Of a DNA stretch of 64,000 bases, positions 5,515 through 64,000 are shown one piece after another. The stretch is from the NCBI GenBank assembly GCA_002422165.1, contig DITQ01000010.1:56595-120594 (forward strand), in the 5' to 3' direction. Made by a program: the position numbers and the translations under genes. Each line of letters begins with the position of its first letter. Position 1 is the stretch's first letter. This DNA is from Candidatus Pacebacteria bacterium UBA6180. GTDB lineage: Bacteria > Patescibacteriota > Microgenomatia > UBA1400 > PJMF01. A model generated the notes under the pieces. That model was given only the letters and a program-made list of their open reading frames with translations. It ran no database searches and was not told the origin of the DNA.

Positions 5515-5533
5515 TTTTTGACTTGTCCTACGC

Positions 5534-5775: not shown

Positions 5776-5800
5776 GTATTAGACGAAAAAAAGGAAAACT

Positions 5801-8141: not shown

Positions 8142-8165
8142 CTTATATTAACCCTAAAGGAAAAA

Positions 8166-9509: not shown

Positions 9510-9525
9510 GGGTAAAATAGACTTC

Positions 9526-19249: not shown

Positions 19250-19323
19250 GGGCCGGTAGCTCAGTTGGCTAGAGCGCTTCTATGGCATAGAAGAGGTCAG
19301 GGGTTCAAGTCCCCTTCGGTCCA
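19250..19323 (+). tRNA. tRNA-Ala (anticodon GGC)
   Basis: The acceptor stem gggccgg / tcggtcc includes a G3:U70 pair. The anticodon loop atGGCat reads GGC. A GGTTCAAGTCC T-arm is present. CCA is not encoded. Confidence 0.85.
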
Positions 19324-19326
19324 CAC

Positions 19327-28723: not shown

Positions 28724-28735
28724 AGGGGTGAACAA

Positions 28736-29791: not shown

Positions 29792-29815
29792 TTTTTGAAA
29801 ACTTGATTATTAGAT

Positions 29816-31018: not shown

Positions 31019-31034
31019 TTGCGCTAAACTATTT

Positions 31035-31682
31035 GTGAATAGGAATTCTATGCAAAAAATTAAATTTTTCCAAAAAATTAAAAATCAGGCTGCTTTCACC
31101 ATGATTGAGCTTTTGATCGTGATCGCGATTCTTGGTATTTTGGCAGTGGCTGTTTTGGCAGCTATCAATCCAATTGAACAGATCAACCGCGGTCGTGACA
31201 CTGGTTCTCGGTCTGATTCTGAGCAGTTGCTCAGTGCCATTGATCGCTTCTATGCTTACAAGGGTTACTACCCATGGTTGACTAATCCCAATGACACTTC
31301 AACTTTAGCCTGGCGCGGTGTGGCCGGAGATACAACAATCACTTTTAGTGATGGAGGCTCGATTTCAGCTTGGCCTGACAACACTTCTCCAGATCCTTGT
31401 TATGTTTTGGATAAGATTGCTAATGGAGATGGCAGCACTTGTGACGGCACCAACGAGGTTAAACGTAGCTTCGTCGATAAAATAACTAAATCTGATTACA
31501 ACCATCTCTATGTTTATTACAATGGTGACCCAGGGAGCAGTCTCTATGTCTGTTTCAAGCCACAGTCAGGAGCCATGAAGGAAGAAGCTTCGAGTCGCTG
31601 TAGTGCTGGATTGCCAGAAGATCTGCAGGGTGCAGTTAGCGAAATTTGTACTTCAGGCGCAGAATACATCTGTCTCCCATAA
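31035..31682 (+). CDS. Type IV pilin (prepilin N-methylation motif; candidate major pilin)
   Basis: A class III signal QAAF|TMIELLIVIAILGILA is present. Residue -1 is Ala rather than Gly. Length is 215 aa with a Cys pair near the C-terminus. Confidence 0.8.
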   Translation: MNRNSMQKIKFFQKIKNQAAFTMIELLIVIAILGILAVAVLAAINPIEQINRGRDTGSRSDSEQLLSAIDRFYAYKGYYPWLTNPNDTSTLAWRGVAGDTTITFSDGGSISAWPDNTSPDPCYVLDKIANGDGSTCDGTNEVKRSFVDKITKSDYNHLYVYYNGDPGSSLYVCFKPQSGAMKEEASSRCSAGLPEDLQGAVSEICTSGAEYICLP

Positions 31683-31688
31683 ATTCTG

Positions 31689-32489
31689 ATGCTATTTTTT
31701 GAATTAGCTTTGGTTTTTATTTGCTCCTACTTTTTGGCGATCCTAGCTAGCTTTTTTAATGTGGTTATTTTTCGTACAGCCAGAGAAGAGTCTTTTGTTG
31801 GGGGTCGTTCTAAATGTGAGCACTGTGGGAAGCAAATCAGTTGGCGAGACAATCTACCCATCTACTCTTTTATTATGCTTGCTGGTAGGTGTCGAAGCTG
31901 TCACAGTCAAATATCTAGGAGACATTTCATCAGCGAATTATTAGCTTTTGTTAGCGGCTGGTTTTTCTATTTTGGTTTATTGCATGCACAAGCTTTACAG
32001 GGTTTACCAATAGGGCAGCTGATTGTCTATTTTTTATGCTTTTTTGTGTTGGCTTTCATAGTTTGGGCAGATCTACAGTATTTTTTGGTTCCAGATTTTC
32101 TAGTAATTTTGCTGACAATTTTTACGGTGATTTTGCTCTTTTTGACTGAGAGTGCTTGGCAAACTGCGTTGTTAGCAGTAATTTTCTCTTGTGCTGTTTT
32201 TGCCATGATTTACTTGGTGGCGCGCAAATTTTTAGCCAAAGAAGCCCTGGGCTTAGGTGATTTGAAATTGATGGTCCCCTTGTCTTTGCTGCTTTCTTGG
32301 CCGCTAATTCTTGTCAATATTTTTTTAGCGTTCATTTTAGGTGGGATTTTTGCTATGATTGCTTTAGTTACAGGTCGTAAAAAATTTGGCCAAGCGTTGC
32401 CTTTTGCTCCTTTCCTTGTTTTGGCAGCGTTGATTAGCTTGTTTTATGGTAAGTTTTTGATCGACTGGTATTTAGGTTTTTTGTTATAA
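31689..32489 (+). CDS. pilD: Prepilin peptidase PilD (A24 family)
   Basis: The N-terminal zinc-binding CEHCGKQ...CRSC motif and polytopic membrane topology fit PilD. Confidence 0.8.
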   Translation: MLFFELALVFICSYFLAILASFFNVVIFRTAREESFVGGRSKCEHCGKQISWRDNLPIYSFIMLAGRCRSCHSQISRRHFISELLAFVSGWFFYFGLLHAQALQGLPIGQLIVYFLCFFVLAFIVWADLQYFLVPDFLVILLTIFTVILLFLTESAWQTALLAVIFSCAVFAMIYLVARKFLAKEALGLGDLKLMVPLSLLLSWPLILVNIFLAFILGGIFAMIALVTGRKKFGQALPFAPFLVLAALISLFYGKFLIDWYLGFLL

Positions 32490-32499
32490 AAATAAATTT

Positions 32500-33501
32500 A
32501 TGCGTATCATAAAGTTTTTTTTAGCAGCTCTCTTAGGCACGATTATTATTGGAGGATTGGTTATATTGGTTCTTCGCGAAGTAGTTTTGGTGGCGGGCGC
32601 ATCTTCCTTATCTGGAGACTATAAGAGCTTGCTAAATAAAAACTATAGCCAAGAGTGTATGCGCCAGCACGGTTATGTCCAAGATTATTTCACGCAAATT
32701 CGTTTCACTTCCAACAGAGAATATAAGACCGAGGTTGTCTGTGCTGATTTTACCTCCACGCCAATTGTTTTAGAAAGTAAAAAATTGCCGATATTGTTAT
32801 TCAAAACCTCAATTGGTTCTGGCTTTGTGATTGATGAGCGAAAGTTGCCTTCGACAATTAAATTGAGTTCTCTAGGTCGGAAGATTTTTGTCTATACAGA
32901 GAATGGTCAAATGCACAGCAACTACCTGCGACCAGCAGATTTAGATTATGAGCTGGGGCCAGTTAGTGTCTGTCAGGCCCACGATTACCAGTGTTGCGAT
33001 CTGGATGTTCAGAGTGGCGAAGGAGAACAACTAACCAGAGTTAACGATTGCCCAAAGAGTTGCTATACCAGCTGTTTGTTGAGGCCAGTAGTGTTGTCTT
33101 TCAATACTCGCCCCGCGCTTGATACAGAAACGCGCATTGTCGAAGTGCGCGCAAATGAATTGGTCACTTTTTCTTACGTAGTTGGTGATGGTAAAACTGA
33201 TGTTTTTGCTGGTCAAATTGCCAAAAATGAAGAGTTAAATTTACTAGAAAAAATGCAAGCTTTAATCGCAGGTCCCAAATCAAGTAAAGCTGGCGGTTTA
33301 TCTTTACCAGTTACAGTGACAATAGACTTTGGTGATGGAGAGATTTGGCAAAGCAATAAGTTACAAGACACCATTGATCATCAATACGCTTGTACTAGTC
33401 AAACTTGCGTTTTTCAGGTCAAATTAAGTGCAAGTGACAGCCGTGGAGTCTTGTCAGTTGGTAATGAATTGACTAGAATGATTATTAAGGTGGACAGGTA
33501 A
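32500..33501 (+). CDS. Cys-rich, membrane-anchored hypothetical protein inside the pilus operon
   Basis: An N-terminal TM helix is followed by about 12 Cys (VCQAHDYQCCDLDV, NDCPKSCYTSC). No homology I recognise. Confidence 0.45.
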   Translation: MRIIKFFLAALLGTIIIGGLVILVLREVVLVAGASSLSGDYKSLLNKNYSQECMRQHGYVQDYFTQIRFTSNREYKTEVVCADFTSTPIVLESKKLPILLFKTSIGSGFVIDERKLPSTIKLSSLGRKIFVYTENGQMHSNYLRPADLDYELGPVSVCQAHDYQCCDLDVQSGEGEQLTRVNDCPKSCYTSCLLRPVVLSFNTRPALDTETRIVEVRANELVTFSYVVGDGKTDVFAGQIAKNEELNLLEKMQALIAGPKSSKAGGLSLPVTVTIDFGDGEIWQSNKLQDTIDHQYACTSQTCVFQVKLSASDSRGVLSVGNELTRMIIKVDR

Positions 33502-33515
33502 CAGAATTCAAGATC

Positions 33516-33935
33516 ATGAAAAAAAACAAACAAAAAGGTTTTACTCTTCTAGAAATCCTTGTGGTTATTTCGATTATTGGCATTTTGGTGGCACTGGGAA
33601 CAGCGGCTTTTTCGACCACTCAGAAGAAAAGTCGCGATGCACGACGTAAATCTGACCTTAAGGCTGTCCAGAACGGTTTAGAACAATATCACGCCAAAGT
33701 TGGCTCCTACCCGACATCATCTGAAGAGGCAAATGACGAGACAATTTTCCCAGCTGGTCTGCCTGAAGACCCTAGAAATATTAGTCCAAATACCTACACA
33801 ATCAACTTTAATAGTGATTCTTTCTGCGTCTGTGCCCTTTTGGAAAATAGTGCGGGCAATGCTGCCAACCTGCCTTCTGGTTCTGCTTGTGAGTACGGCA
33901 GTGGCAACTATTATTGTCTGGGGAATCTGCAATGA
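33516..33935 (+). CDS. Minor pilin / pseudopilin
   Basis: KQKG|FTLLEILVVISIIGILVALG is a canonical prepilin cleavage/methylation motif. Confidence 0.8.
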   Translation: MKKNKQKGFTLLEILVVISIIGILVALGTAAFSTTQKKSRDARRKSDLKAVQNGLEQYHAKVGSYPTSSEEANDETIFPAGLPEDPRNISPNTYTINFNSDSFCVCALLENSAGNAANLPSGSACEYGSGNYYCLGNLQ

Positions 33936-34336
33936 ACAAAAAAAATCGTGGCTTCACGATGATTGAATTATTGGTGGTGGCGACGGTGATTATTTTATTA
34001 ACAGCGATAGGCTTAGTTTCCTTTAGTCAGACAGTGCGTAGTAGCCGCAATGCCAAGCGCAAAGCCGATTTGGAGACTGTTAGACAAGCCCTAGTGCTAT
34101 ACAAACAAGACCACACTTATTATTCTGACAATACTAGTTTGAACTTTGATAGCTTAGTTGGCGAACTACATGCGGCAGAATACCTAACAGAATCAACCAT
34201 AGTGGATCCTAAGAACACGATTCCTTACACCTATCAAGCGATTTGCTCGACAGTCAGTGGCCCGAATTGCATCAAGGTGACTTTGCGAGCGGTGCTAGAG
34301 CCAGATGAGCAAACCTATGACCTTATCGCTCTCTAA
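33932..34336 (+). CDS. Minor pilin / pseudopilin
   Basis: KNRG|FTMIELLVVATVIILL is a prepilin motif. ATGA overlaps the upstream stop. Confidence 0.8.
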   Translation: MNKKNRGFTMIELLVVATVIILLTAIGLVSFSQTVRSSRNAKRKADLETVRQALVLYKQDHTYYSDNTSLNFDSLVGELHAAEYLTESTIVDPKNTIPYTYQAICSTVSGPNCIKVTLRAVLEPDEQTYDLIAL

Positions 34337-34844
34337 GAGACAATCCAATGCAGCTTTCACTCTAATTGAGATGACAATCGCTGTTTCTGTGATGGTTATT
34401 TCCTTGTTAATTGGTTTAGCCAACTATTTACGTTTTCTAGACAAACAGCGTCTTTATCAGGCAGGGGCAAATGTAGAGATAATGCTTAAGGATGGTCGTT
34501 CCAAAGCGCAAAATGGATATTTAGGTAGTGAGGAGTTGGGTTATTGCACACAACTGGCGGGAGTAGAGATTAGTTCTGCGACCGATGTTAGCGGTCGAAT
34601 TTCAATTATTGGGCGCTTGAGTTGTGCTGACGATAGCTCTTTGATTTATGAAAGCTTCACTCTTGAGCAAGCGGAAGTTGCTATCGACCAGCACTTTCAG
34701 ATTATATTTTTACCTTCTCGGGGAGCTCGTTTGACCCTTGGTGGAGCTACGACCAGTAGTGGCGCTGCTGTGCTTAGTCAGCGTGATAGTGCAGTTATTT
34801 TTAATTTAGATCAGGGAGGAACGATTGATGTCAGTTATCAGTAG
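34305..34844 (+). CDS. Minor pilin / pseudopilin
   Basis: SNAA|FTLIEMTIAVSVMVISLL is a prepilin-like motif with Ala at -1. Confidence 0.65.
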   Translation: MSKPMTLSLSKRQSNAAFTLIEMTIAVSVMVISLLIGLANYLRFLDKQRLYQAGANVEIMLKDGRSKAQNGYLGSEELGYCTQLAGVEISSATDVSGRISIIGRLSCADDSSLIYESFTLEQAEVAIDQHFQIIFLPSRGARLTLGGATTSSGAAVLSQRDSAVIFNLDQGGTIDVSYQ

Positions 34845-35325
34845 AGCAGCTGTGGGAGAACCCATCGCTCACCGCGCGCAGCGCGGTTCTACTCTAGTAG
34901 AAATTTTAGTGGCGGTGACCATCATCTCTCTGGTGTTGACGGCGGTTTCAGCAATGATTTCCATGTCTGTTAAGCTAGCGGAAAGTAACGAAAAAAAACA
35001 ACTAGCATTGCAAAAAGCTGAAGAAGCAATGGAGTTTTTTCGCAAAGAACGAGTGATTTCTAGTTGGTATAGTTTTTCTACTCCTCTGACTGATGGGGCA
35101 ACTTATTGTGTAAGTAGTTTGCCAGAAGATGTTGCTAGTTTGTCAGCGAAGTTAGGTGGTTGTAGCAATAGCGACACGATGGAAGCTGCGCGATATAGCT
35201 TCCAGCGTCAGGCAGTTGTCAATTTTAACAGCGTCAATCGACTTAATATACAGATAGAGATGCTCTGGAATGATGGCTCTAAGGCAAAGAACTTAGTTTT
35301 AGAGCAGAGCTTTGAGAATTATTAG
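34825..35325 (+). CDS. Minor pilin / pseudopilin (PilV/FimT-like)
   Basis: AQRG|STLVEILVAVTIISLVL is a prepilin motif. Confidence 0.65.
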   Translation: MMSVISRAAVGEPIAHRAQRGSTLVEILVAVTIISLVLTAVSAMISMSVKLAESNEKKQLALQKAEEAMEFFRKERVISSWYSFSTPLTDGATYCVSSLPEDVASLSAKLGGCSNSDTMEAARYSFQRQAVVNFNSVNRLNIQIEMLWNDGSKAKNLVLEQSFENY

Positions 35326-35935: not shown

Positions 35936-37732
35936 CTACTGTGTGATTAACCGTGGATTGATTTCGCGCCAATTGCTAGTACTAGCCTTGAGTTTGACTG
36001 GCCAGTTGAATAGTAGATCGGAACGATAGATGAAATTTTCGATCGCTTGGTTGTTATTGAGAATGGGGCCAAGATTTCCATCATCAAATGTACGGTTGAG
36101 AGTGACGCCGCCCCAGCCAACGAAGGTGCCAGCCCCGATGAACTTGCGATCAGGAGGAACTTCGCCGATGTCGGTTTTGCTTTGCAGGATTAGGCTATCA
36201 TTGGCGATGAAAACACCTTCTAAATTGCTGTTCGCTATAGCAACCACAGGCACTGTAGGCGTATTAGGATCGAGCTCATAGCCGATATTTGGTGTAATCC
36301 AGATGTCACCGCTAGCGATGAAGGCCAGGAAGCCTCCGTTGGCAACGCTTGTGATTTTGCGATTAGTGTCTCCAGGATTGCTGTCATCGAAGGTCAAGCG
36401 GCCGTCGACAAAGACGACCAGCTGTTGGCCACTAGACAGAAAGAAACCTTGGCTTTCATCAATGCTGACATTGCCATTGATTTTGACATAGTTAACCTCA
36501 TCAGGTTGCCACCAGGGGGCAGAAGTAAAGTCACTGAGTAGAGGTTCCAGGTCTTCACCATTACCTATAGTGATAGCACTGTTTTCAGCTAGTCGGTAGA
36601 AATAGTCATAGGAAAGCGGTGCCAAATCAGTACGTAGAGCATAGGCATTACGGTTTTCAGGTCGAGATGTCAAATGAAGGTAAGAGTGATAGGCGCTACT
36701 GACGTTGCTGGTTTGAACGCGGCTTGGATCACTACTCGTGATAATCGTAAAGCCGCTGCTGAGAGGATTACTGCTGTTGCTGGGCAAGTTTAGGGCTGGT
36801 TGGCAGCCAGGATCGCCAGCACAAAAACTTTCGGGGATGGTGCTGGCGACTAAGTTGCTGGCAAAGAGATTGCCGCCGAAAACTTGAAACCAAGAAGTAT
36901 TGGAGAGACTGTATTCTCTTAGGTAAAAATTGACTCCTGCTAGTGGTGGATAAACGCCTGAGTAGCGACAGAGATAGGGGTCAGTGACACTGATTGGCGC
37001 AGGACAGGAACAAACGTAATTGGTTCCAACCTGATTGGTAAGATCTAGAGTAACGGTGTAACCAGTGCCCGTCATGACATTGGAGATGCTGTAGTTACTA
37101 GGATTAGCGAAGCTAAAGGTGGCATCCTGGGTGGTTTGGCTCGGGGCCGACGCACGCAGGGTAATGTTTGATAAGTTATTGATCGGGGAAGCGCTGGCCT
37201 GGGTGCAATAAGCGCCACTGAGGGCAGCAGAAAGGTCGGTTTGAATTGAGCCCTGTATGAGACTGACAGTTGGGGTAGGTGTAGGTGTAGGTGTGCCTGT
37301 CGGGGGAGGTGTGCCTGTCGGGGGAGGTGTGCTACCACCACTTCCATCATCTTGCGGAGGCTCACAGTTACAGAGGACGTCGGCTTCCTCGTATATGCAG
37401 TTGCCACCAACCTCCGAGCAGTCACTGCATCGAACTTCATTACAACAAACTCCAGAGACAGGGTAAAAATTATTTGGATCGCTTGGGTCAGTGCAAGCAC
37501 CGCTGTCAAAGCACTCATAAGTTGCACATTGAGCCGGAGCTGGAGGTGGATTACTTGGGCAATTCGCATCACTTGAATAATTTAAGGTATGGGAATAAAT
37601 AACCGTTTGGGTACCGCAGTAGCCGCTACATTCACCCCAGACGGTGTCGTTGCATGCTGCTAAAGCTTGATTATTTGTAGTTAATAAAATTAGAAATAAT
37701 ACGGTAGTAATTATGGTTGATTTTAATCGCAT
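35936..37732 (-). CDS. Large secreted protein: signal peptide, ~100-aa Cys-rich module, Pro/Thr linker, ~430-aa C-terminal domain (candidate pilus-associated adhesin)
   Basis: Signal peptide is MRLKSTIITTVLFLILLTTNNQALA. At least 16 Cys occur in the first 110 mature residues. The PPPTGTPPPTGTPTPTPTPT linker is encoded by tandem nucleotide repeats at 37257-37340. Confidence 0.6.
   Translation of the reverse strand: MRLKSTIITTVLFLILLTTNNQALAACNDTVWGECSGYCGTQTVIYSHTLNYSSDANCPSNPPPAPAQCATYECFDSGACTDPSDPNNFYPVSGVCCNEVRCSDCSEVGGNCIYEEADVLCNCEPPQDDGSGGSTPPPTGTPPPTGTPTPTPTPTVSLIQGSIQTDLSAALSGAYCTQASASPINNLSNITLRASAPSQTTQDATFSFANPSNYSISNVMTGTGYTVTLDLTNQVGTNYVCSCPAPISVTDPYLCRYSGVYPPLAGVNFYLREYSLSNTSWFQVFGGNLFASNLVASTIPESFCAGDPGCQPALNLPSNSSNPLSSGFTIITSSDPSRVQTSNVSSAYHSYLHLTSRPENRNAYALRTDLAPLSYDYFYRLAENSAITIGNGEDLEPLLSDFTSAPWWQPDEVNYVKINGNVSIDESQGFFLSSGQQLVVFVDGRLTFDDSNPGDTNRKITSVANGGFLAFIASGDIWITPNIGYELDPNTPTVPVVAIANSNLEGVFIANDSLILQSKTDIGEVPPDRKFIGAGTFVGWGGVTLNRTFDDGNLGPILNNNQAIENFIYRSDLLFNWPVKLKASTSNWREINPRLITQ
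37257..37340. repeat. Coding tandem repeats (6-bp ggtgta x3 and 21-bp cctgtcgggggaggtgtg-containing unit x2) encoding the PT linker
   Basis: gtaggtgtaggtgtaggtgtgcctgtcgggggaggtgtgcctgtcgggggaggtgtgct is visible directly in the sequence. Confidence 0.8.
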
Positions 37733-38351: not shown

Positions 38352-39974
38352 TTAGTTACCGGCTTCTAATACTAGCACTTTTGCTTCTAAAAGGGGTAAT
38401 TTATTGTTAACTTGGTTTCCAGTAATGACATTGTGAGTTTGACTTGATGGAGCTAGCCCCTCATAGTCAGTGGTTGGTTCTTTTCCGTCTGATTTGGGGT
38501 AGGATTGAGCAAATTCTGCTTTTTGATCCACTTCGTACATTACGTAGTACAATCTATTTATTTTGAGTGCTTTATAAAAATCGCTGATTTCCCTGATTTT
38601 TCCAAGGTTGGCAGCTTTGAAGTTGTCTCCATACAGATTAGGGGCTCCAGTTATCAATACTGTTGTAACTGAAAAGGGATCGCTTTCATTGATTACAAAT
38701 CCCATCAAGGTGCCAGCTACGCCAAAACCAGGAATATTTATTTCTCCAATCTCTTTTCCCAAAAAGAAAGTTGGAACCATGTTAACTTGTTTTCCGTATG
38801 CTTTATGTAAATATTCAGGATTAGTCAAGCCTTGAAGATTTGGGTCTGTTACCCACTGAGGATCAACTTTCTCTCCGGCCGGCCAAGGGAAATTGTCAAA
38901 ATTACCGAACATAATATTTTGCGAGCCTTCAATTCTAATCCACGATCCTTTATAGAAAACATGGGTGTACCCCTCGTTATCAACTACTCTTGGAAGAGTA
39001 TTGTCGATGGTTCGTTGTTCGGCGGAAGTGCCGTCGCTGACCGGCTTAAAATCTAGGGTAACAGGGTCGATATAAAATTTGTCACCATTTCTATCTGTAA
39101 AAATAATTGGGTTAGAACCTCTTCTCGCGTCCTTTTCTTTGTCCAGGGCAATGCTAAAGGTCTTGCGTTGTTCAAAGCTAAGAGAGCTGACATCAACGCT
39201 GCCTCCCTCCATAGCTTCATCTACCAATTTTTGGATTATTTCTGCTTCGCTTAGCACAACCACTTCAACTGTTGGAGAGGGTGGCTGAGTGGGAGCCTCC
39301 GCGGTCACAATCGGATCTTCCTGTGGTGGTGGCGGAGTCAAGCTGGGGTCAACTTCTCCTGGGAAGTTAGGAGCGCTTGCTTGGTTGGGATCAACATCAG
39401 CTTTGGGGGCAGAAAGTCCGCAGGCTAATTGCATCGCACCCAGAATTACAATTAAAGTTAAGCCTGCGTAAACGCCTTTAGGCATTGCGTAGAGTACTCT
39501 GTCAAATAATTCGGCAAAAGATGTAAATGGTTTTTTAAGTTCTTCCAGTAAATAACGTCGCATCAGAGCAGCTAATTCTGCCTCATTTTTTGGTGTGGAT
39601 TTTGATTCAACGGCAATGTTTTTGGCTTGTCGTTTGAGTTCTGCTACACGACTTCTAATTTGTTGCCAATTAGCTTGTAATGCTGCAGCAACTTCTATTG
39701 GCAAGTTCTTCTCGCTGATATCGAGAATTTGTTCATTTAATAAATAATTAAGTTGAAGAGCACGGGCGGTATCAATGGTTTGTTCTAAACCTTTTAGCTG
39801 TCTTTTCTTGGTTTTTCTAGCAAAAGCTTTTTTTCCAGACTCAAGAACTGAAGCTACTGTGGCCTGCTGAGGACTAAAGGGTTCGTGTTTATCTCTGTCG
39901 CCGCGAAGTTGTGAGCGAAAATTAATTTCTGCTCGCCTTTTCGAATCACTATTATGTAGTTCTTTTCTCCCCAT
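38352..39974 (-). CDS. Bitopic membrane protein with Pro-rich spacer and large extracytoplasmic domain (hypothetical)
   Basis: A ~190-aa cytoplasmic coiled-coil-like N-terminus is followed by a TM helix GLTLIVILGAMQLAC. A PPPPQEDPIVTAEAPTQPPSPT linker and a ~300-aa domain follow. Confidence 0.5.
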   Translation of the reverse strand: MGRKELHNSDSKRRAEINFRSQLRGDRDKHEPFSPQQATVASVLESGKKAFARKTKKRQLKGLEQTIDTARALQLNYLLNEQILDISEKNLPIEVAAALQANWQQIRSRVAELKRQAKNIAVESKSTPKNEAELAALMRRYLLEELKKPFTSFAELFDRVLYAMPKGVYAGLTLIVILGAMQLACGLSAPKADVDPNQASAPNFPGEVDPSLTPPPPQEDPIVTAEAPTQPPSPTVEVVVLSEAEIIQKLVDEAMEGGSVDVSSLSFEQRKTFSIALDKEKDARRGSNPIIFTDRNGDKFYIDPVTLDFKPVSDGTSAEQRTIDNTLPRVVDNEGYTHVFYKGSWIRIEGSQNIMFGNFDNFPWPAGEKVDPQWVTDPNLQGLTNPEYLHKAYGKQVNMVPTFFLGKEIGEINIPGFGVAGTLMGFVINESDPFSVTTVLITGAPNLYGDNFKAANLGKIREISDFYKALKINRLYYVMYEVDQKAEFAQSYPKSDGKEPTTDYEGLAPSSQTHNVITGNQVNNKLPLLEAKVLVLEAGN

Positions 39975-43365: not shown

Positions 43366-43623
43366 TTGCTTGTAAATCAAAATAACACTATGAAAAGCTT
43401 ACTTGAATTCATCTTACTTCGCATGGTCGAACACCCAGAAGATCTAAAGATTGATGAGGTTCAAGAAATGGGTCTGACTATTTACAAACTTAAGCTTCAT
43501 CCTGATGATGTTGGTCGCGTGATTGGTCGCTCTGGCAACGCCATTAAAGCTATTCGCAAACTCGCCAGTGTGCGTGCGGTAAAAGAACGCTTGCGCGTGA
43601 GAGTGGTTTTGCAGGAAGACTAA
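43366..43623 (+). CDS. KH-domain RNA-binding protein (YlqC/UPF0109 family)
   Basis: The VGRVIGRSGNAIKAIR GXXG KH motif is present. Synteny after rpsP is conserved. An alternative start exists at 43390. Confidence 0.75.
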   Translation: MLVNQNNTMKSLLEFILLRMVEHPEDLKIDEVQEMGLTIYKLKLHPDDVGRVIGRSGNAIKAIRKLASVRAVKERLRVRVVLQED

Positions 43624-44465
43624 AGCTCTTCTTCAGTTTCATTTATTCTACTCAGTTCATCAGCTGGTTCTACAGATGCATTTAGGCTTTGTTCTAACTC
43701 TTCAACGCTCAGGTTTCCAATTCCAAATAAATTGCCGCGGTCACCGCGGATAACCTGGTCTTGAAGCTGCAGATCTCCCGGGATTAGTTGGTTGATGTTA
43801 TCGAGAATTTTGCGCTCTGCCAAGGTAATGTCAGGTAAGGGATTGGTGATAGTGGTGCGAATGGATTGGGTGAAATAAAAACTGCGCAAGACCAGATCAG
43901 CCTGAGCAATAGCGTTGCGATCTTGCTCAATATTGCGATTAATTGAGATGCTGGTAATAGTGCTGATTGGAGTAACTTGTTCTATTAGACTCATAAACTC
44001 CTGAATGCGCCAAAGTGGACCACTGACGCTAAAATCTAAATCGAGAAAATCATAGCTTGTAGTGTTGCTGCTGCGGCGTACTTGAGTGGAATCAGTGGCA
44101 ATTTCACCAGGATTGAGGCTGAAGTTTTTGATCACCACCTCTGTGGTGTTGGCAACTTTGTTAAGATTATTGAGAATTTCTAAAAGTGGTTTGTGAGAAG
44201 GCAAAACTTTATTGATATCAGAAGCCTGGTTGAAATTGGGGTCGATGGCTAGCTGTTTGAGTTGTTCTGCCTTATTATAAAATTTGGCTAGCTCTAGTTC
44301 ACGCTCATTAAGTTTATTTAAGTCAGTCAAAATTGGAGTAATTTGTTGGATCACGCCAATTAATAAAACTAGTCCAGCGAGGATGAAAAAAAGTACTCCT
44401 AAGACTAATTCCTTACGAGTGTTCCAAAATAAGCGCCAGTTTACTTCGGTTTTATTTTCAATCAT
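43620..44465 (-). CDS. PilO-like type IV pilus assembly protein (bitopic)
   Basis: An N-terminal TM helix and a coiled-coil precede the periplasmic domain. It sits downstream of pilM and pilN on the same strand with overlapping ends. Confidence 0.45.
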   Translation of the reverse strand: MIENKTEVNWRLFWNTRKELVLGVLFFILAGLVLLIGVIQQITPILTDLNKLNERELELAKFYNKAEQLKQLAIDPNFNQASDINKVLPSHKPLLEILNNLNKVANTTEVVIKNFSLNPGEIATDSTQVRRSSNTTSYDFLDLDFSVSGPLWRIQEFMSLIEQVTPISTITSISINRNIEQDRNAIAQADLVLRSFYFTQSIRTTITNPLPDITLAERKILDNINQLIPGDLQLQDQVIRGDRGNLFGIGNLSVEELEQSLNASVEPADELSRINETEEEL

Positions 44466-45018
44466 TTTTTTTGAGTTCTAATTTGAGAGTCAGTTTATAG
44501 CTACCATTGTCTGCTCTAGACAAAGTATTTTTTTCGATGTCATGATATTGCCCTCGTAATTTTTCGCTATCTAGAATTTGGTTGACTTCTCTGAATTTGA
44601 AGATATTTTCGCTGCTTAATTGCAACACCAACCCACCCTGCTCTTCCTGGTAGCTCATGCCGACAATTTCAGCTTTTTCAGCAAAAGTTTCAGAGAAGTA
44701 GTTCATTGCAGCCTGCTTATCACTACGTTTTTGATAAATTTCACTGATGGCTCGAATTTTATTGACAAAAATTAAATAATTAAGCTCGACATTTTCTTGG
44801 GCGAGAATGCTTGCTCGATATTCCTTGATTTTGTTTTCGGTAGTATTAATGCGCAAATTATTAAACAATTTAAAACCAAAAACCCCAATCATGAGTAGGC
44901 AAGCTACTCCCAATACATAGCTGCTTAAGCGAAAAATGCGAACATCTTGCTCTTTTTGCTTGCTTTTTTGTTTAACACGGTTGGCTAAAAAATTGATGTT
45001 GATCATGAGTTTTGCCAT
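44458..45018 (-). CDS. pilN: PilN-like type IV pilus assembly protein
   Basis: The N-terminal ININFLANR resembles the PilN INLLP motif. A single TM helix is present. Length is 186 aa. Confidence 0.55.
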   Translation of the reverse strand: MAKLMININFLANRVKQKSKQKEQDVRIFRLSSYVLGVACLLMIGVFGFKLFNNLRINTTENKIKEYRASILAQENVELNYLIFVNKIRAISEIYQKRSDKQAAMNYFSETFAEKAEIVGMSYQEEQGGLVLQLSSENIFKFREVNQILDSEKLRGQYHDIEKNTLSRADNGSYKLTLKLELKKND

Positions 45019-45022
45019 TAAG

Positions 45023-46030
45023 CTAGAGCTGTCTAGTGATTAGGCCCATGCAAACGCTATAGCTAGCTTGATTGAGTTCTGGAACTTGGCCTTTGGCTTT
45101 GGCGAAAGGAGCTGCTATCAACACTTCCACTCCCAAATTTTGACTGATTTTTTCGACCAAACCCTTTAGTTGAGCTGGCCCACCAGCTAAAGCAATGCGC
45201 TTAATTTTTTGTTCAGGGTGATTTTGGTTAAAAAAGCGCATCGTTTTTTGCAAATCAATGATTAGGTTGTTAATAATTGGGTCAATGACTTGGTATAGCT
45301 TGCCTTCCATTTGATTGGGATCGAGACCATAGTTAATTTTGTATTCTTCTGCCTGTTTAAGGTCGAGATTGAAACTTTGGCTAATAGCAGCGTCAATTAG
45401 TGAGCTGCCAGTTTTAGAATTAAAAACGAACTCGAACATATTATTGGCAACCACAGCGATGTCGTTGCTACTGGAGCCCATTTGGACAATGATGGTCTCA
45501 GGATCATTGGCTTCTATATCTAGCGAGCGAATGACAGAAAAAATTTGGGTTTCAAGAAGGGTTGCTTCGATGCCAATGTTGAGAAAAACATTATTGATTT
45601 TTTCAACCAGGGATTTACGCGATCCAACTAGCAAAACTTTCATTGTTGCATTAACTGCTTTTTTATTGGGTTTTTCTAGAACTTGATACTGCAAGATAAG
45701 GTCATTTTTGGGGATGGGGATGGACTGTTCAGCTTGCCAGCCAATCGCTGAAGCCAGCTCAGCATCACTAAGGACAGGCACATCAATCACTTTACTAGTG
45801 ACTAGATATTCAGGCAAACTAAGTCTGACGTCGCTTTGATCGAGCTTGTAGTCGTGGAAAAGGTTGCTAATTAGCTCAGCGAACTGCAGTGCTTCTTGGT
45901 CGCTTTTGGGAGCGACTAATCCTAATTTATTTTTGATTTCTACAGCTTTATTAATCGCTTGACTTCTGCTGTCTTTAGCAACAACGATCTTAATCGTGTG
46001 GGTGCCGATGTCTAGGGCAGTTATTGACAT
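45023..46030 (-). CDS. pilM: Type IV pilus assembly protein PilM (actin-like ATPase fold)
   Basis: The N-terminal ITALDIGTHTIKIVV matches the PilM/FtsA-like phosphate-1 motif. Length is 335 aa. Confidence 0.7.
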   Translation of the reverse strand: MSITALDIGTHTIKIVVAKDSRSQAINKAVEIKNKLGLVAPKSDQEALQFAELISNLFHDYKLDQSDVRLSLPEYLVTSKVIDVPVLSDAELASAIGWQAEQSIPIPKNDLILQYQVLEKPNKKAVNATMKVLLVGSRKSLVEKINNVFLNIGIEATLLETQIFSVIRSLDIEANDPETIIVQMGSSSNDIAVVANNMFEFVFNSKTGSSLIDAAISQSFNLDLKQAEEYKINYGLDPNQMEGKLYQVIDPIINNLIIDLQKTMRFFNQNHPEQKIKRIALAGGPAQLKGLVEKISQNLGVEVLIAAPFAKAKGQVPELNQASYSVCMGLITRQL

Positions 46031-46040
46031 ATTTATAGTT

Positions 46041-46838
46041 TTATTTTGCTAAACTTCCTCCGCTAACTAGGGCAAAATCCATAAAAGCCGGGGCGGCAGG
46101 AATTGACCTTTTAACCTCGATGGCTTTGGAGCTAGAACCATCTGGCATCTGAGCCATCGACAAAATCGTGTATTGGGCGCTGGCTAGTAGGTTGCTGCTG
46201 CCACTCAAGTGAAGATCGGTGCCCTGGTCAAGTGGTAGGATGCGTAAAAAAGCTCCTTGGTTATTACTGCCGTCAATGCCGATGGTGTATTGAAATTGGT
46301 AAAGATCTTCTGTGGAGGCTGTTGCGCTAAGTAGGTTCTGGTCACTTTGGCTAGCACAGTTGCCAACCATATAATAATTAACATCCGTCGCGCCACCACT
46401 AAGGAAGTAATGACCAATTAGAAGGTTGGCCGCTCCCTGATCACAAGCACTTTGAGACCAGTGTAGAGTTAGATTGCCAGTTTGTGTGTCGCTAATGCGC
46501 ACTTCCAGCGCTGTTTTTTCTGGCACAAAACCAGTGAATTCATCAGCAGAGCTAATACTGACCTGGTTAAAGTTGGCATCTTCAAAGGAAAATTCAGCAG
46601 GCAATTGGATATTTTGATCGCTTTCGAATTGAAAAATGTTGCCGAGAGCTTGTTGGATTCCTGATTCGGCAGTACTAAAAACGCGAGCAGTGTCCTCTTG
46701 TGCGATATTACTTTGACTTTCTCTGATGGTGCGGTTGGCGATGGAAAGGCCAATCACCAAGATGATGGCTGAAATTAGTAGGACAATTACCCCAACTTGC
46801 CCATCTTGACTGGAACTAAAAGCAATGTGTTTCTGCAT
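46041..46838 (-). CDS. Membrane-anchored hypothetical protein at the head of the pilMNO cluster
   Basis: An N-terminal hydrophobic helix is VGVIVLLISAIILVIGLSIA. Length is 265 aa. It is pilus-associated by context only. Confidence 0.4.
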   Translation of the reverse strand: MQKHIAFSSSQDGQVGVIVLLISAIILVIGLSIANRTIRESQSNIAQEDTARVFSTAESGIQQALGNIFQFESDQNIQLPAEFSFEDANFNQVSISSADEFTGFVPEKTALEVRISDTQTGNLTLHWSQSACDQGAANLLIGHYFLSGGATDVNYYMVGNCASQSDQNLLSATASTEDLYQFQYTIGIDGSNNQGAFLRILPLDQGTDLHLSGSSNLLASAQYTILSMAQMPDGSSSKAIEVKRSIPAAPAFMDFALVSGGSLAK

Positions 46839-59875: not shown

Positions 59876-60637
59876 ATGAGCGGAAAGAGGTTTTTCATTG
59901 GGCTGAGTGCAATTGTAATCTCGCTCGCCCTGGGAGGCATCATGACCTCCCTCACCCGTGATCCGCGGTGGATTGAAATTCCACTGTGGCTCTACGGCGC
60001 CACCCTAGCACTGCTAGTGGTCTGGGGTCTTTACAGGCTATACCAGACAAAGGGGCCGGGGGTGGTGATTTTTGGAGGGATGGGAGTAGGCAGCATCGTT
60101 GCTTGCCTGCTACTGTCATACTTAGGGGGAATGTTCACGAGGTGGGGTTCCACGGTCAACGTGGCCAGCTCCCTTGGTGGATACCAAGGCAGCTGGTGGG
60201 AGTACATCGGTACTCCTGGCTTCATCTACTTGGGATTCCTGGCCGCCGCCTTTGTCACCATCTGGGTGACGGGGGCAAGCCGTTGGCTCCCAACCCTAAT
60301 TTTGGCTGGCGCCAGCTTTGCAGGCGCCCTCTATCTAGGTCAGGTAGAGGTGTTTTGGAAGGCGGCCGCTGGCGGCGCAATTAGCGTCGTCATCGGAACA
60401 GCCCTCGACCTAGGGCTGGTGAAGAAACCCTCCGCCAGCAGCGGCTTGACAGCCGTTGCTTTCGGTGCCATTGCCCACTCGATCATTTATCTGGTCGTGG
60501 GGGCGTTGCTCGCTCAGATTACTCTGAGCGTGGGGTTCTTCAATCCGTCTGCTGGGCAGACGGTCATCGCCGGCTTCCTCGCCGGTGCTGGTGTAACCAG
60601 CATGGTGAGGAACTACATTTTTTTGAGGGGGGTTTAA
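59876..60637 (+). CDS. Gly/Ala-rich polytopic membrane protein encoded by a markedly GC-richer segment (hypothetical, likely horizontally acquired)
   Basis: The 253-aa product has about seven TM helices and GxxxG-rich stretches. By eye its nucleotide composition is much more GC-rich than flanking genes. Confidence 0.55.
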   Translation: MSGKRFFIGLSAIVISLALGGIMTSLTRDPRWIEIPLWLYGATLALLVVWGLYRLYQTKGPGVVIFGGMGVGSIVACLLLSYLGGMFTRWGSTVNVASSLGGYQGSWWEYIGTPGFIYLGFLAAAFVTIWVTGASRWLPTLILAGASFAGALYLGQVEVFWKAAAGGAISVVIGTALDLGLVKKPSASSGLTAVAFGAIAHSIIYLVVGALLAQITLSVGFFNPSAGQTVIAGFLAGAGVTSMVRNYIFLRGV

Positions 60638-60653
60638 ATGCGTTTGTCGAAAA

Positions 60654-60700
60654 AGAGGTCTTGTGGAAGCGAAAGCGACCACAAGACCTCTTGATCTATT
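60654..60700 (+). terminator. Terminator-like hairpin after the GC-rich gene
   Basis: A 13-bp perfect stem agaggtcttgtgg / ccacaagacctct with a 12-nt loop is followed by a T-rich tract. Confidence 0.5.
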
Positions 60701-60836
60701 TATTTGACTGTGATTTTGTTCTAGTTAGCTGACAGCTTAAGCCAATTAACAAGCTTAAACTGACTATTTACTCTAAGGGTTGTTTTTTGTTAGACTGGTG
60801 GATGGCAGCTTTTTTGTTTTTAGGAACCCTCTCACC

Positions 60837-62387
60837 ATGCAGATCATGAGGCTGATTAGGAGAGTTTTTGCTCCTGTCCACAGGCTTACCACCAGCGAAC
60901 TACTTGCCAATTTCAAGCAATCTAACTTTTTGAAGCGTTTGCTTGGCATGGCAAAAGTCGGCGATCGCCGCTCTGCTTTAGTGCGGGCCAAAGCAGTTTA
61001 CCAGCAGCTCATCGGTGACAAGCATCACCAAGGTCAGCTAAATTCTCTTGAAGTCGAAAACATTTTTCTCACTCAAACTGGAGTACTGGTTTTTTACCAT
61101 GTCGTCCAAGGACAGCAAATTCAAATTTGGACGATGCTTTTCGAAACTGCTTCGCCACGCCATTTCCTGTGGCGCAAACCGCGTTTGATTACGGAGTTCA
61201 GAGATGAGGGGGACGAGTGGCGTTTCATCTCGCTGCAGCAAACTGACTCGAACTTTGAAGCCTTCTGGCACTCCAAACTTTTGGGTCAACTGCTCAAGGT
61301 TTATCCCAGATACCGCTTTCAGCGGCAAATCGAACTCAAAAACCCTATTCCTCTACTGATGAAGCCGCATCACTACAACCCGATGATAAGTCCGCACCTC
61401 AGAAATTCTTGGGAGGCGCTTTCGACTTTCAACCCAGCGGCTTTTTACGCTGCTGATCAAGTACATTTACTTTACCGTGCGCAAGGTTTTGACTATGTTT
61501 CGCAAATTGGTTACGCGACTAGCAGCGATGGCCTCACTGTTACCAAGCGTTTTACAGAGCCTATTTATCGACCGACAGCTGCATTTGAGGGAGCGAGTTT
61601 GCCACCTGGTGATCCAGCTGGCCAATTTGCTTCTGGTGGCGGCAGTGGTGGGATTGAAGACCCGCGTGCGACTGTTATCGATGATCGCGTTTACATGACC
61701 TACGTCGCTTATGACGGTTGGAGTCCGCCGCGAGTGGCCTTGACCTCGATTGCCTTGACTGATTTTCTGAATCACAATTTCCTCTGGGAGAAGCCGGTTT
61801 TAATTTCGCCTCCAGGCATAGTCGATAAGAGTGCCGTAATTTTTCCGGAGAAGATCAATGGCAAATACGTCATCATGCATCGAGTTTTCCCAGATATCTT
61901 AATTGACTATGTCGATTCTTTGGATTTCGATGGTAATACTTTTCTAACTGGTCAACACAAAATTTCTCCGCGCTCTCGTGATTTTTGGGACAGTCGCAAA
62001 GTTGGTGCTGGCGCACCACCCCTCAAAACCCCAGCCGGCTGGCTACTCATTTACCAGGGAGTGGATGACAAAGACGCTAGTGAATACAAGGTTGGAGCGA
62101 TGCTATTAGATCTAAATGACCCTGCCAAAGTCTTGGCTAGATCCGCTGAGCCGATTCTTCTACCCAGAGAAAAATATGAGAATAATGGTTTTAAGGCAGG
62201 CGTAGTTTACCCCTGTGGCGCCCTGATCAAAGACGACACTTTGTTCGTCTATTATGGCGGAGCTGACTCTTACGTCTGTGTCGCTACTGCTGTGCTAAAC
62301 AAATTTCTCGAAGCTTTACAAAAAACTGGCAACACCAATTTAAACTCAGTCTTATTGGCTGTAGAACAGGAAGATCCTCATGAGTAA
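60837..62387 (+). CDS. GH130-family glycoside phosphorylase/hydrolase with ~190-aa uncharacterised N-terminal region
   Basis: The C-terminal ~320 aa carry GH130 hallmarks: GIEDPRATVIDDRVYMTYVAYDG, VVYPCGALIKDDTLFVYYGGAD, WDSRKVGAG. The ORF track begins at a TTG at 60780, and the first ATG is at 60837. Confidence 0.7.
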   Translation: MQIMRLIRRVFAPVHRLTTSELLANFKQSNFLKRLLGMAKVGDRRSALVRAKAVYQQLIGDKHHQGQLNSLEVENIFLTQTGVLVFYHVVQGQQIQIWTMLFETASPRHFLWRKPRLITEFRDEGDEWRFISLQQTDSNFEAFWHSKLLGQLLKVYPRYRFQRQIELKNPIPLLMKPHHYNPMISPHLRNSWEALSTFNPAAFYAADQVHLLYRAQGFDYVSQIGYATSSDGLTVTKRFTEPIYRPTAAFEGASLPPGDPAGQFASGGGSGGIEDPRATVIDDRVYMTYVAYDGWSPPRVALTSIALTDFLNHNFLWEKPVLISPPGIVDKSAVIFPEKINGKYVIMHRVFPDILIDYVDSLDFDGNTFLTGQHKISPRSRDFWDSRKVGAGAPPLKTPAGWLLIYQGVDDKDASEYKVGAMLLDLNDPAKVLARSAEPILLPREKYENNGFKAGVVYPCGALIKDDTLFVYYGGADSYVCVATAVLNKFLEALQKTGNTNLNSVLLAVEQEDPHE

Positions 62388-64000
62388 AATTCTTGCCCGT
62401 CGCTGCGACCGCAACCCCTTGCTGATTCCCGACGAGCAATTGCTTTGGCAGGCCCGGGCAGTCTTTAACGCTTGTCCAGTTGACCTTGGTGAGAAAATTG
62501 GCTTACTGTATCGAGCAGAATCAGAAGAACAGGAGTTTGAAGGTCGATCTTACCGCGTTTCGACTATTGGTTACGCTGAGAGCAATGACAGGAACGAGAT
62601 TTCTGGAATCAGGCAATTCATCTCGCCTTCAGAAAGTTTTGATAAATTTGGCTGTGAAGATCCGCGAGTTACCAAAATAGACGATCAATACTTGATTTTT
62701 TATACAGCGCTCTCTGATTTTCCACCCTCGGCTGATTCCATCAAAGTTGGCTTAGCCATAAGTCCTGATCTAAAAACCGTTGCCGCTAAACACCTAGTTA
62801 CCCCCTTCAACGCCAAAGCAATGGTGCTTTTTCCAGAGAAAATCAATGGTCAATACGTGGCGATTTTGACCGTCAACACGGATCGCCCACCTTCCAGCAT
62901 TGCTCTGGTGCGCTTCGATCGTTTGGAGCAAATTTGGGATCAGCAGTTTTGGTGTGACTGGTACGCTACTTATGAGGAGAAAACTTTGCCTATTCAGCGC
63001 TTAAATACCGATCACGTCGAAGTTGGTGCGGTGCCTGTTAAAACCAGTGCGGGTTGGATTATGGTTTATGCTCACATACAGCACTACCAAAATTCAGAGC
63101 AGCGCATTTTTGGGATCGAAGCAGTTCTGCTTGATTTGGACGATCCGAGTCGCATAATTGGTCGCACCACTGAGCCATTTTTGCAGCCAGAGCTAGAGTA
63201 CGAAAGAAAAGGTGTGATTCCCAATGTCATCTTTCCTTCTGGGGCAATTATTAGGCAGGATGAGCTGCGCATTTATTACGGAGCGGCAGACACGGTGGTG
63301 GCGATGGCGCGCTTGAAGCTAGATGCACTACTGAGCTACTTACAGCAGAATGTTCATTTGGTAGCACCCAAACTGATCAGGTTCAGGGGAAACCCCATCC
63401 TGACACCCATTGAACAAGTCAACTGGCGTGCTCAGGCTGTTTTTAATTCTGCCGCAGTTTATGCCAATGATAAATTTCATTTGCTTTATCGCGCCATGTC
63501 ACCAGACAACACCTCGACAATTGGCTACGCCAGCAGTCGAGATGGTTTCAACTTCGATGAGCAGAGTTTGGAGCCAGTTTACATTCCGCGGATGAGTTTT
63601 GAGCAAAAAACCAGAGTAAATGATTTTTCTGGCTGCGAAGATCCAAGACTGACGCTTTTTGAAGACAGGTTTTATATGTTTTATACTGCTTACGATGGTA
63701 TTCGCCCACCTCAGGTGGCTCTGACTAGCATCGCAGTTGCTGATTTTGCTAGGCAGGAATGGCTGTGGAGCGAGCCGATCTTGATTTCTGATCCGACCAC
63801 TGATAACAAAAATGCTTGCTTGTTCCCCAGGAAAATCAAGGATAAGTTTGTCATTTTACACCGCGTTCTTGGTCAAGACATCGCCATAGATCTTGTGGAC
63901 GATTTAGAGTTTAAGCAAGGTTCTTGGTTGGAGAAGGAGGGTTTGATTTCTGCGCGTGCTGGTCACTGGGACAGCGCCAAGATTGGCATCGCTGGTCCAC
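62380..64000 (+). CDS. Tandem double GH130-domain protein (3' end beyond window); ATGA-type overlap with upstream GH130 gene
   Basis: Manual translation from ATG at 62380 gives at least 540 codons without a stop. Domain 1 has GCEDPRVTKIDDQYLIFYTA and IFPSGAIIRQDELRIYYGAAD. Domain 2 begins at about 63360 with GCEDPRLTLFEDRFYMFYTAYDG. It is absent from the ORF track because it has no in-window stop. Confidence 0.7.
   Translation, partial: MSKILARRCDRNPLLIPDEQLLWQARAVFNACPVDLGEKIGLLYRAESEEQEFEGRSYRVSTIGYAESNDRNEISGIRQFISPSESFDKFGCEDPRVTKIDDQYLIFYTALSDFPPSADSIKVGLAISPDLKTVAAKHLVTPFNAKAMVLFPEKINGQYVAILTVNTDRPPSSIALVRFDRLEQIWDQQFWCDWYATYEEKTLPIQRLNTDHVEVGAVPVKTSAGWIMVYAHIQHYQNSEQRIFGIEAVLLDLDDPSRIIGRTTEPFLQPELEYERKGVIPNVIFPSGAIIRQDELRIYYGAADTVVAMARLKLDALLSYLQQNVHLVAPKLIRFRGNPILTPIEQVNWRAQAVFNSAAVYANDKFHLLYRAMSPDNTSTIGYASSRDGFNFDEQSLEPVYIPRMSFEQKTRVNDFSGCEDPRLTLFEDRFYMFYTAYDGIRPPQVALTSIAVADFARQEWLWSEPILISDPTTDNKNACLFPRKIKDKFVILHRVLGQDIAIDLVDDLEFKQGSWLEKEGLISARAGHWDSAKIGIAGP

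Follow-up and report, generated by a model that had tools for sequence, protein, structure and literature searches.

A conserved gene pair encoding three GH130 propeller domains with differing phosphate pockets in Patescibacteria

Organization of the gene pair

The stretch of DNA analysed here (the window) comprises 64,000 nucleotides (nt) of contig DITQ01000010.1 from Candidatus Pacebacteria bacterium UBA6180. Its 3' end carries two overlapping open reading frames, ORF1 and ORF2, which together encode three domains of family GH130, designated D1 (in ORF1), D2 and D3 (fused in ORF2) (Table 1). With confidence a little above even, we read the pair from its residue patterns as a conserved two-gene operon for a cytoplasmic multi-propeller GH130 complex acting on beta-1,2-mannosides, in which D3 would be a phosphorylase while D2 and D1 would be remodelled.

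ORF1 was found as a gene call of 516 amino acids (aa) in two independent assemblies, with orthologues, and its exact product occurs on the ENA metagenome contig ERZ27315062 k141_1531375 (161,661 bp) and on a Logan contig. ORF2 was missing from the list of open reading frames because it has no stop inside the window, as a preliminary description made from the sequence alone had supposed. On the parent contig ORF2 is complete at 638 aa and ends at the window-equivalent position 64296; it contains two full GH130 domains without a frameshift and is followed by its stop and immediately by a convergent DUF5660 gene. The tandem-domain reading therefore holds past the window, and no frameshift or stop occurs soon after position 64000. 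The start and stop codons of the two genes had been described as a 4-nt ATGA overlap, but the overlap is 8 nt long, which is consistent with translational coupling.

A hairpin upstream of ORF1 is likely a terminator and would set the 5' limit of the GH130 operon. Scans for consensus promoters and terminators around the operon returned no match, and the terminator scan missed this hairpin because its loop is longer than 8 nt. We also noticed a 10-nt perfect inverted repeat, 60600-60609 (GCATGGTGAG) and 60831-60840 (CTCACCATGC), which flanks the whole intergenic region. Its second arm spans the ORF1 start codon; the repeat is probably due to chance but could sequester the start.

Table 1. Coordinates of the GH130 gene pair, its domains and the adjoining features in the window
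Feature	Position	Strand	Description and basis
253-aa membrane protein	59876-60637	+	About 6-7 hydrophobic segments; no Pfam or NCBIfam match
Hairpin	60653-60692	+	Perfect 14-bp stem, 12-nt loop; directly 3' of the unrelated 253-aa membrane ORF; repeat search
ORF1	60837-62387	+	ATG at 60837 to TAA at 62385-62387; 516 aa; leader, GH130 relic and D1
Leader, ORF1 aa 1-65	60837-61031	+	Poorly conserved; predicted helical; low model confidence
Remnant of a degenerate fourth GH130 propeller (final blades), ORF1 aa 70-169	61044-61343	+	Hidden Markov model (HMM), hhalign, AlphaFold2
D1, ORF1 aa 172-494	61350-62318	+	Pfam; PDB 9fj8, 7fip; Foldseek TMt 0.83-0.86
Shine-Dalgarno-like AGGAAG	62368-62373	+	6 nt upstream of the ORF2 ATG, within the ORF1 3' end; read off the sequence
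ORF2	62380-64000 (cut at window end)	+	D2-D3 fusion; ATG at 62380; 540 codons in the window
Gene overlap, 8 nt ATGAGTAA	62380-62387	+	ORF2 start to ORF1 stop
D2, ORF2 aa 1-328	62380-63363	+	Pfam, PDB matches, conservation, AlphaFold2
D3, ORF2 aa 331-638	63370-64000 (aa 331-540 in the window)	+	Pfam; 9fj8, E 2.4e-63; Foldseek TMt 0.89-0.90

Family, fold and linkage marker

All three domains are securely members of GH130. The Pfam model PF04041 (Glyco_hydro_130) matched ORF1 once, at aa 172-494 (E 1.2e-49, 169 bits), and ORF2 in two stretches (E 5.5e-59, 200 bits), against a cut-off of 26 bits, so that the three complete domains claimed in the preliminary description are borne out. The motifs reported there for ORF1 are likewise present, EDPR at aa 274-277 and YYGGAD at aa 472-477. 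The AlphaFold2 models show five-bladed beta-propellers with a predicted local distance difference test score (pLDDT) of 78.5 for ORF1 and 93.7 for ORF2, the latter with a predicted template modelling score (pTM) of 0.86. The best sequence matches in the PDB are 9fj8 and 7fip for each domain (E 3e-53 for D1, 2e-42 for D2 and 2e-63 for D3), and Foldseek aligned the models to the same two structures with a template modelling score for the target (TMt) of 0.83-0.90 and E of about 1e-26. The more specific models gave lower scores. ORF1 scored 226.7 bits on NF052550, the NCBIfam equivalog for beta-1,2-mannobiose phosphorylase with a threshold of at least 450 bits; ORF2 scored 457.9 bits only as the sum of its two domains, each of which lies below 450. 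On NF058598, which represents BT3780-type enzymes, the scores of 113 and 190 bits fell far short of the 550-bit cut-off.

Residue conservation was assessed in the 120 best orthologues of each protein and in GTDB genomes of 59-84 further species. In GH130, the residue beside the catalytic Asp and the residue at the position of UhgbMP R150 form a linkage marker, with E/K for beta-1,2, E/R for beta-1,3 and Y/R for beta-1,4 (Li et al. 2020, PMC7660257). Every domain of the pair carries E/K (E274/K331 in D1, E93/K146 in D2 and E420/K477 in D3), and this pair was 100% conserved for all three domains in the 120 orthologues of each protein and in the further species. A beta-mannan or N-glycan substrate had been proposed for the array; the presence of E/K and not Y/R in all domains, together with Teth514_1788 and Teth514_1789 as the nearest enzymes, speaks against it and points to beta-1,2-mannosides.

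The proton-donor Asp, which is needed in all GH130 enzymes, and the residues of the -1 subsite (N73, D131 and D344 in the reference BfMGP) are defined by published criteria (Li et al. 2020, PMC7660257; Cuskin et al. 2015, PMC4599007; Ladeveze et al. 2025, PMC12814180). The corresponding residues are N199, D275 and D477 in D1, N30, D94 and D304 in D2 and N356, D421 and D622 in D3. This set was kept in 118-120 of 120 orthologues and in 65-84 of the 67-84 further species. Across the three domains the -1 and +1 subsites and the Asp are essentially invariant; at a few positions, one or two of the 59-120 sequences deviate.

Phosphate pockets of the three domains

By the same criteria (PMC7660257, PMC4599007, PMC12814180), a phosphorylase pocket consists of an Arg/His pair (UhgbMP R168 and H231) with a third basic residue, while in GH130 hydrolases glutamates replace the basic residues. 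Judged by residue pattern, D1 and D2 lack the Arg/His pair that defines phosphorylases, and D3 alone among the three domains here has the full phosphate-binding Arg/Lys/His set. The functional differentiation of the domains would appear to lie in this nucleophile (phosphate) pocket and not visibly in the invariant sugar subsites. The domains had been suggested to have differentiated specificities; the part of this suggestion that stands is the difference between phosphate pockets, whereas the sugar subsites do not vary.

D3 presents the canonical signature of a beta-1,2 phosphorylase (N356, R371, E420, D421, K477, H494-R495, K534, H553 and D622), of which H553 and D622 lie beyond the window end. 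Its phosphate set R495, K534 and H553 was kept in 83-84 of 84 sequences.

D2 retains intact sugar subsites and an intact proton donor (N30, R45, E93, D94, K146 and D304). The phosphate Arg is gone, as L163-T164 replaces His-Arg (T164 or V165 stands at the Arg position) and Thr or Ser occupies the site in 65 of 67 species. The phosphate His is also gone: A231 is found here and Ser, Cys or Ala in 67/67. The Arg/His pair was absent from all 187 D2 sequences. The third basic position is H212 here, and His or Gln in the family. Two residues further on, E214 (codon 63019-63021) is invariant (67/67 and 120/120) at a position which in phosphorylases is the Gly of the motif R/K-x-G. In the ORF2 model a beta-strand covers residues 212-215, and H212 and E214 should therefore face the same side.

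The relation of E214 to the hydrolase BT3780 was estimated through the NCBIfam BT3780 model. Fragments of D3 aligned to it without gaps, fragment residues 1-33 falling on profile positions 244-276, and the calibration offsets were +10 at D142 and +9 at D363. By this indirect profile mapping, Glu268 of BT3780 coincides with the Gly/E214 position or with the next residue on its C-terminal side (E214 being 267 or 268); only the first of these two positions would face the active site. Glu268, with Glu227, is the catalytic base of BT3780 (PMC4599007). Residue mapping gave no counterpart of Glu227 in D2. D2 also contains a helical, Trp-rich insert (aa 182-201; 62923-62982) with the invariant residues W186, W191 and W194, which is absent from D1, D3 and Teth514_1788. 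We note that this insert could serve as an extra sugar-binding platform or as an interface.

D1, too, has kept its sugar subsites and proton donor (N199, R214, E274, D275, K331 and D477), and its phosphate triad reads R349, K388 and Q407, with Gln in place of His in 114 of 120 orthologues. The triad was observed to change across the 59 further species: two (loci L061 and L056) have the full Arg/Lys/His, about 12 have Arg/Lys followed by Gln or Tyr, and about 45 have Ser, Asn or Gly, then a hydrophobic residue, then His. In D1 the sugar site thus appears to be strongly constrained while the nucleophile pocket seems to drift between lineages. Loss of Arg and loss of His seem to exclude each other, as though one of the phosphate contacts were always retained.

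The N-terminal region of ORF1

The region preceding D1, about 190 aa, had been described as novel. It seemed so because ORF1 aa 1-170, used alone as a phmmer query, has only three matches among 1.84 billion representatives, one of which is a repetitive 1193-aa protein aligned to the helical stretch only. Profile comparisons give a different result for aa 70-169. An HMM built from the N-terminal domains of ORF1 orthologues of about 630 aa matches this segment with 32.6 bits (E 2.5e-12), over positions 187-292 of the 292 in the model. In hhalign, ORF1-type N-termini matched the N-terminal domains of the long orthologues at 99.7% (E 1.5e-25) and the canonical GH130 (D3) profile at 95.3% (E 2.3e-8), in register with the blades of the pattern GWLLIYHG...LLDL.DP..V..R...PIL, and the N-terminal domains of the long orthologues matched D3 at 99.9% (E 5e-37). 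The orthologues of about 630 aa have two Pfam GH130 stretches each, and their N-terminal half is therefore a divergent GH130 propeller, in which the EDPR motif is already gone (for example, CSDFHF). While ORF2 orthologues are uniformly about 640 aa, those of ORF1 range from 358 to 645 aa. On these profile matches, ORF1 aa 70-169 is a decaying GH130 domain, trimmed here to the final blades.

The model agrees with this assignment, with seven strands at aa 71-156 (pLDDT 78-92) following low-confidence helices. For aa 1-65, the frequency of the top residue among orthologues is about 0.25, the pLDDT is 42-47 at aa 1-40 and a helix is predicted at 39-63; no homology and no hydrophobic signal peptide or transmembrane segment were detected there. 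A novel domain within aa 1-190 is thus ruled out for aa 70-169 and is without conservation or homology for aa 1-65.

Distribution of the gene pair

Database relatives number more than 6,000 for each of the two proteins (E<=0.001), and the 120 best of each share its architecture. Where named, the relatives belong to Pace-, Woese-, Roizman-, Shapiro- or Beckwithbacteria or to the "Patescibacteria group". A scan of GTDB species genomes gave at least 600 matches. The pair occurs in at least hundreds of bacterial species with tiny genomes. We classified the 80 best GTDB loci, and three more from an exact-protein look-up, with our own HMMs for D1, D2, D3 and the N-terminal domain. The D2-D3 fusion was observed in 68 of these loci, 59 of which had enough upstream sequence for a partner gene to be sought. 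A D1-type gene lay on the same strand with its end within 150 nt of D2 in 50 of the 59, mostly at -19 to +60 nt, and the N-terminal GH130-like domain is still present in 18 of the upstream D1 genes found. The taxa include both Microgenomates-type and Parcubacteria-type lineages. The array had been called unexpected for a reduced genome; its wide occurrence makes it a conserved module of Patescibacteria instead.

Outside the candidate phyla radiation (CPR), the same D2 and D3 signatures were found in Arthrospiribacter ruber and in an Asgard archaeon (Atabeyarchaeia), and the module also occurs in Pseudobacteriovorax. In the cultured Bacteroidota strain A. ruber DPMB0001 (NZ_RPHB01000008.1; locus L053, 4644-7929) the pair consists of overlapping genes of 455 and 646 aa, at 4644-6011 and 5989-7929 respectively, with the D2 (Leu-Thr, His..Glu) and D3 signatures, adjoining a gene similar to phosphoenolpyruvate (PEP) synthase and pyruvate phosphate dikinase (PPDK) and an AraC regulator. 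On the Atabeyarchaeia chromosome (CP147779.1; locus L051, 3439-7914) the D1-type gene lies on the opposite strand and an IS605 OrfB/TnpB gene stands between D1 and D2-D3, a layout which suggests horizontal transfer or rearrangement of the module. Pairs of single-domain D3-like genes were found in Thermoanaerobacter, Caldithrix and several archaeal metagenome-assembled genomes (MAGs), such as those of Halobacteriota. In the literature, GH130 in Patescibacteria is not treated beyond a one-line listing, and we found no paper analysing the module.

Genomic context and other features of the window

Neither ORF1 nor ORF2 has a signal peptide, a transmembrane segment or a hydrophobic N-terminus, and signal peptides are likewise lacking from both GH130 genes reported for Ch65, a complete Microgenomates genome (PMC7143001). 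No transporter or conserved neighbour was linked to the pair at the loci examined, where the flanks differ in every case. Here they are housekeeping genes, those for initiation factor IF3, ribosomal proteins L35 and L20 and PheST upstream and those for trigger factor, glyceraldehyde-3-phosphate dehydrogenase (GAPDH) and triosephosphate isomerase (TIM) downstream, and type IV pilus genes are clustered at a greater distance; nearby genes at other loci include the PEP-synthase-like gene of Arthrospiribacter and, elsewhere, alpha-amylase or enolase. The membrane protein gene upstream of the pair keeps this place only in the closest contigs and has no relative at 81 other loci. The action on host-derived glycans that had been suggested finds no link here, as no signal peptide, transporter or conserved neighbour connects the pair to host glycans.

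Several further observations concern the rest of the window. GC skew is positive in 31 of the 32 2-kb bins of positions 1-64000, whatever the gene strand (maximum 0.16; -0.01 at 8001-10000), and the cumulative skew climbs almost monotonically, resembling the strand composition disparity of genomes of the Microgenomates order UBA1400 (PMC7143001). Type IV pilus sets at 26951-35325 and 43620-46838 comprise two T2SSE ATPases, a PilC-like T2SSF protein, a prepilin peptidase, N-methyl pilins and PilM, and several adjoining ORFs are without a family match. Two large ORFs on the minus strand, at 35936-37732 (598 aa) and 38352-39974 (540 aa), have no Pfam match; the start of the latter is probably called differently elsewhere because its exact product is not on record in the gene index. 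A tyrosine recombinase gene (Phage_integrase) at 18225-19172 (+) lies directly upstream of tRNA-Ala(GGC) at 19250-19324 (+) and is either a XerC/D-like housekeeping gene or the edge of an integrated element.

Comparison with known systems

The closest characterised relatives are the GH130_6 enzymes of Thermoanaerobacter sp. X-514, Teth514_1788 (1,2-beta-oligomannan phosphorylase, 9fj8) and Teth514_1789 (beta-1,2-mannobiose phosphorylase, 7fip), the kinship to GH130_6 being one of nearest neighbours only. The present domains resemble them in sequence (36-47% identity), in fold (TMt 0.83-0.90), in the E/K pair, in having no lid loop, in being cytoplasmic and in being encoded by adjacent paralogous genes; D3 also has the complete catalytic and phosphate-binding set in common with them. 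However, Teth514_1788 and Teth514_1789 are two separate single-domain phosphorylases in an ABC-transporter/GDP-mannose cluster, whereas here two propellers are fused, there are three in all (ancestrally four), two phosphate pockets are remodelled and there is no transporter or mannose-pathway neighbour.

Like the GH130_3 beta-1,2-mannosidases BT3780 and BACOVA_03624 of Bacteroides (5a7v, 3qc2), D2 combines an intact -1 subsite, Asp and E/K pair with the absence of the phosphate Arg and His; its Glu stands at or beside the Glu268 position. A more distant likeness is to the GT108 enzymes MTP1-MTP7 of Leishmania mannogen (6q50), which have the same five-bladed fold (Foldseek E 5e-9) and beta-1,2-mannan chemistry. 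They too form a set of paralogues, in which changes of phosphate contacts switch between transferase and phosphorylase and which turns over a cytoplasmic reserve, that of Leishmania. GT108 is however another CAZy family with about 15% identity, and its switch is Arg to His, while the changes here are Arg to Thr or Ser together with the gain of a Glu in D2, and His to Gln in D1; a mannan reserve here would be hypothetical.

Four GH130-GH130 sequences have been counted in CAZy (Li et al. 2020, PMC7660257); such bimodular entries have the same architecture and probably belong to the same family, and they have so far only been counted. The two Ch65 genes without signal peptides were listed by Kadnikov et al. 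2020 (PMC7143001). New with respect to these listings are the catalytic signatures of each domain, the conserved D1 partner gene, the fourth-domain relic and the distribution. The PDB contains no solved tandem GH130 structure, as the best match by template modelling score for the query (TMq 0.43) corresponds to a single domain. The family itself is an ordinary one; what is unusual is the architecture and the conserved division of catalytic states.

Functional interpretation

In the cytoplasmic complex favoured here, D3 would be an inverting mannoside phosphorylase in which Asp421 would act as the proton donor through a relay over the substrate O3, while Arg495, Lys534 and His553 would hold phosphate for its attack on C1, giving alpha-mannose-1-phosphate in a reversible reaction. 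D2 would bind the sugar with the same proton donor but would place Glu214 into the former phosphate pocket; phosphate-independent cleavage or transfer, hydrolase-like as in BT3780, seems most likely for it. D1 has the least clear role of the three and may be a phosphorylase of reduced or altered activity, or else a partner that holds the substrate, since its pocket drifts between lineages and reads Arg/Lys/Gln here. ORF1 aa 70-169 is a structural remnant of the fourth propeller. Because D2 and D3 are fused, the genes overlap by 8 nt and the gene order is strict, we infer that the products work as one hetero-oligomer.

Several points weigh against this assignment. We know of no source of beta-1,2-mannosides in Patescibacteria, and no mannose-pathway gene was found in the roughly 82 kb of the contig examined. 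The Arg/Lys/Gln set of D1 may still bind phosphate. The equivalence of E214 with Glu268 carries an uncertainty of one residue, as it comes from profile mapping and not from structural superposition. Enzymes of the BT3780 type form a distinct subfamily of secreted proteins whose pocket contains two glutamates (Glu227 and Glu268), whereas D2 is cytoplasmic, has one such Glu and is fused to a phosphorylase.

The nearest characterised relatives form an adjacent pair of phosphorylases, one for oligomannan and one for mannobiose, and it could be argued that D1, D2 and D3 are beta-1,2-mannoside phosphorylases of the ordinary kind, distinguished only by chain-length preference, and that they salvage imported beta-1,2-manno-oligosaccharides to mannose-1-phosphate. 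The intact sugar subsites of all domains, the two of three basic residues retained by D1 here, and the single-domain D3-like gene pairs of Thermoanaerobacter, Caldithrix and archaeal MAGs would be in keeping with such a scheme. We consider it unlikely, as the Arg/His pair is missing in 187/187 D2 sequences, D1 is without His here and without Arg in most other lineages, and no locus examined has a linked transporter, unlike the Thermoanaerobacter cluster with its ABC transporter.

It is also improbable that D1 and D2 are dead pseudo-enzymes, kept as carbohydrate-binding or scaffolding propellers for D3, with the ORF1 relic as a further step of decay. The proton-donor Asp and the -1 subsite are invariant over very divergent taxa including an archaeon, in 59/59 sequences for D1 and in 67/67 for D2 (65/67 at its Asn), which is more than binding alone would need, and the pocket of D2 has acquired a Glu that is invariant. 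The N-terminal domain, which has truly decayed, shows what relaxation looks like, its EDPR having become SDFHF. In favour of dead D1 and D2 domains are the loss of the phosphate triad in D2 and its drift in D1, the decay or loss of the fourth propeller in many lineages, with upstream genes of 358 to 645 aa, and the obligate oligomeric state of GH130 enzymes (PMC12814180).

A biosynthetic or cyclic role is similarly doubtful. The pair might make and mobilise beta-1,2-mannan as a reserve inside the cell, much as Leishmania does with mannogen, with one remodelled site acting as a synthase using GDP-mannose or mannose-1-phosphate and D3 as the mobilising phosphorylase. The module is cytoplasmic, transporter-less and retained in minimal genomes, and would therefore need an internal substrate; glycolytic genes are often nearby (GAPDH and TIM here, PEP-synthase-like, alpha-amylase or enolase genes elsewhere), but these hints are inconsistent between loci. 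All tested beta-1,2 GH130 phosphorylases also show GDP-mannose transferase activity, and GT108 enzymes that lose phosphate contacts shift from phosphorylase towards transferase activity (PMC12814180). The GH130 transferase activity is however about 1000-fold weaker than reverse phosphorolysis (PMC12814180), beta-1,2-mannan is unreported in these organisms, and no positive evidence of a nucleotide-binding site was found. Extended to its full scope, this idea would have one hetero-oligomeric GH130 machine run a cycle of cytoplasmic beta-1,2-mannan, similar to that of mannogen, in Patescibacteria and in scattered other prokaryotes; of its three propellers one would synthesise or transfer, one hydrolyse or debranch and one phosphorolyse. 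In this form we regard it as quite improbable. If true, it would mean a carbohydrate reserve for minimal cells that is mobilised as sugar phosphate without ATP cost.

GH130 is a textbook case in which editing of the nucleophile pocket turns a phosphorylase into a hydrolase or transferase. Under the complex favoured here, the module would keep three such catalytic states (four with the relic) side by side and in fixed order over a very deep phylogenetic span. Automatic annotation of carbohydrate-active enzymes (CAZymes) labels all of its domains "beta-1,2-mannobiose phosphorylase", which is probably wrong for two of the three. The pair is one of the few sugar-active systems kept almost universally in CPR genomes, which are stripped of most metabolism, and because it is so retained its substrate should be something that these cells always meet or make. 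Since the cultured A. ruber carries the same module, it is tractable in the laboratory.

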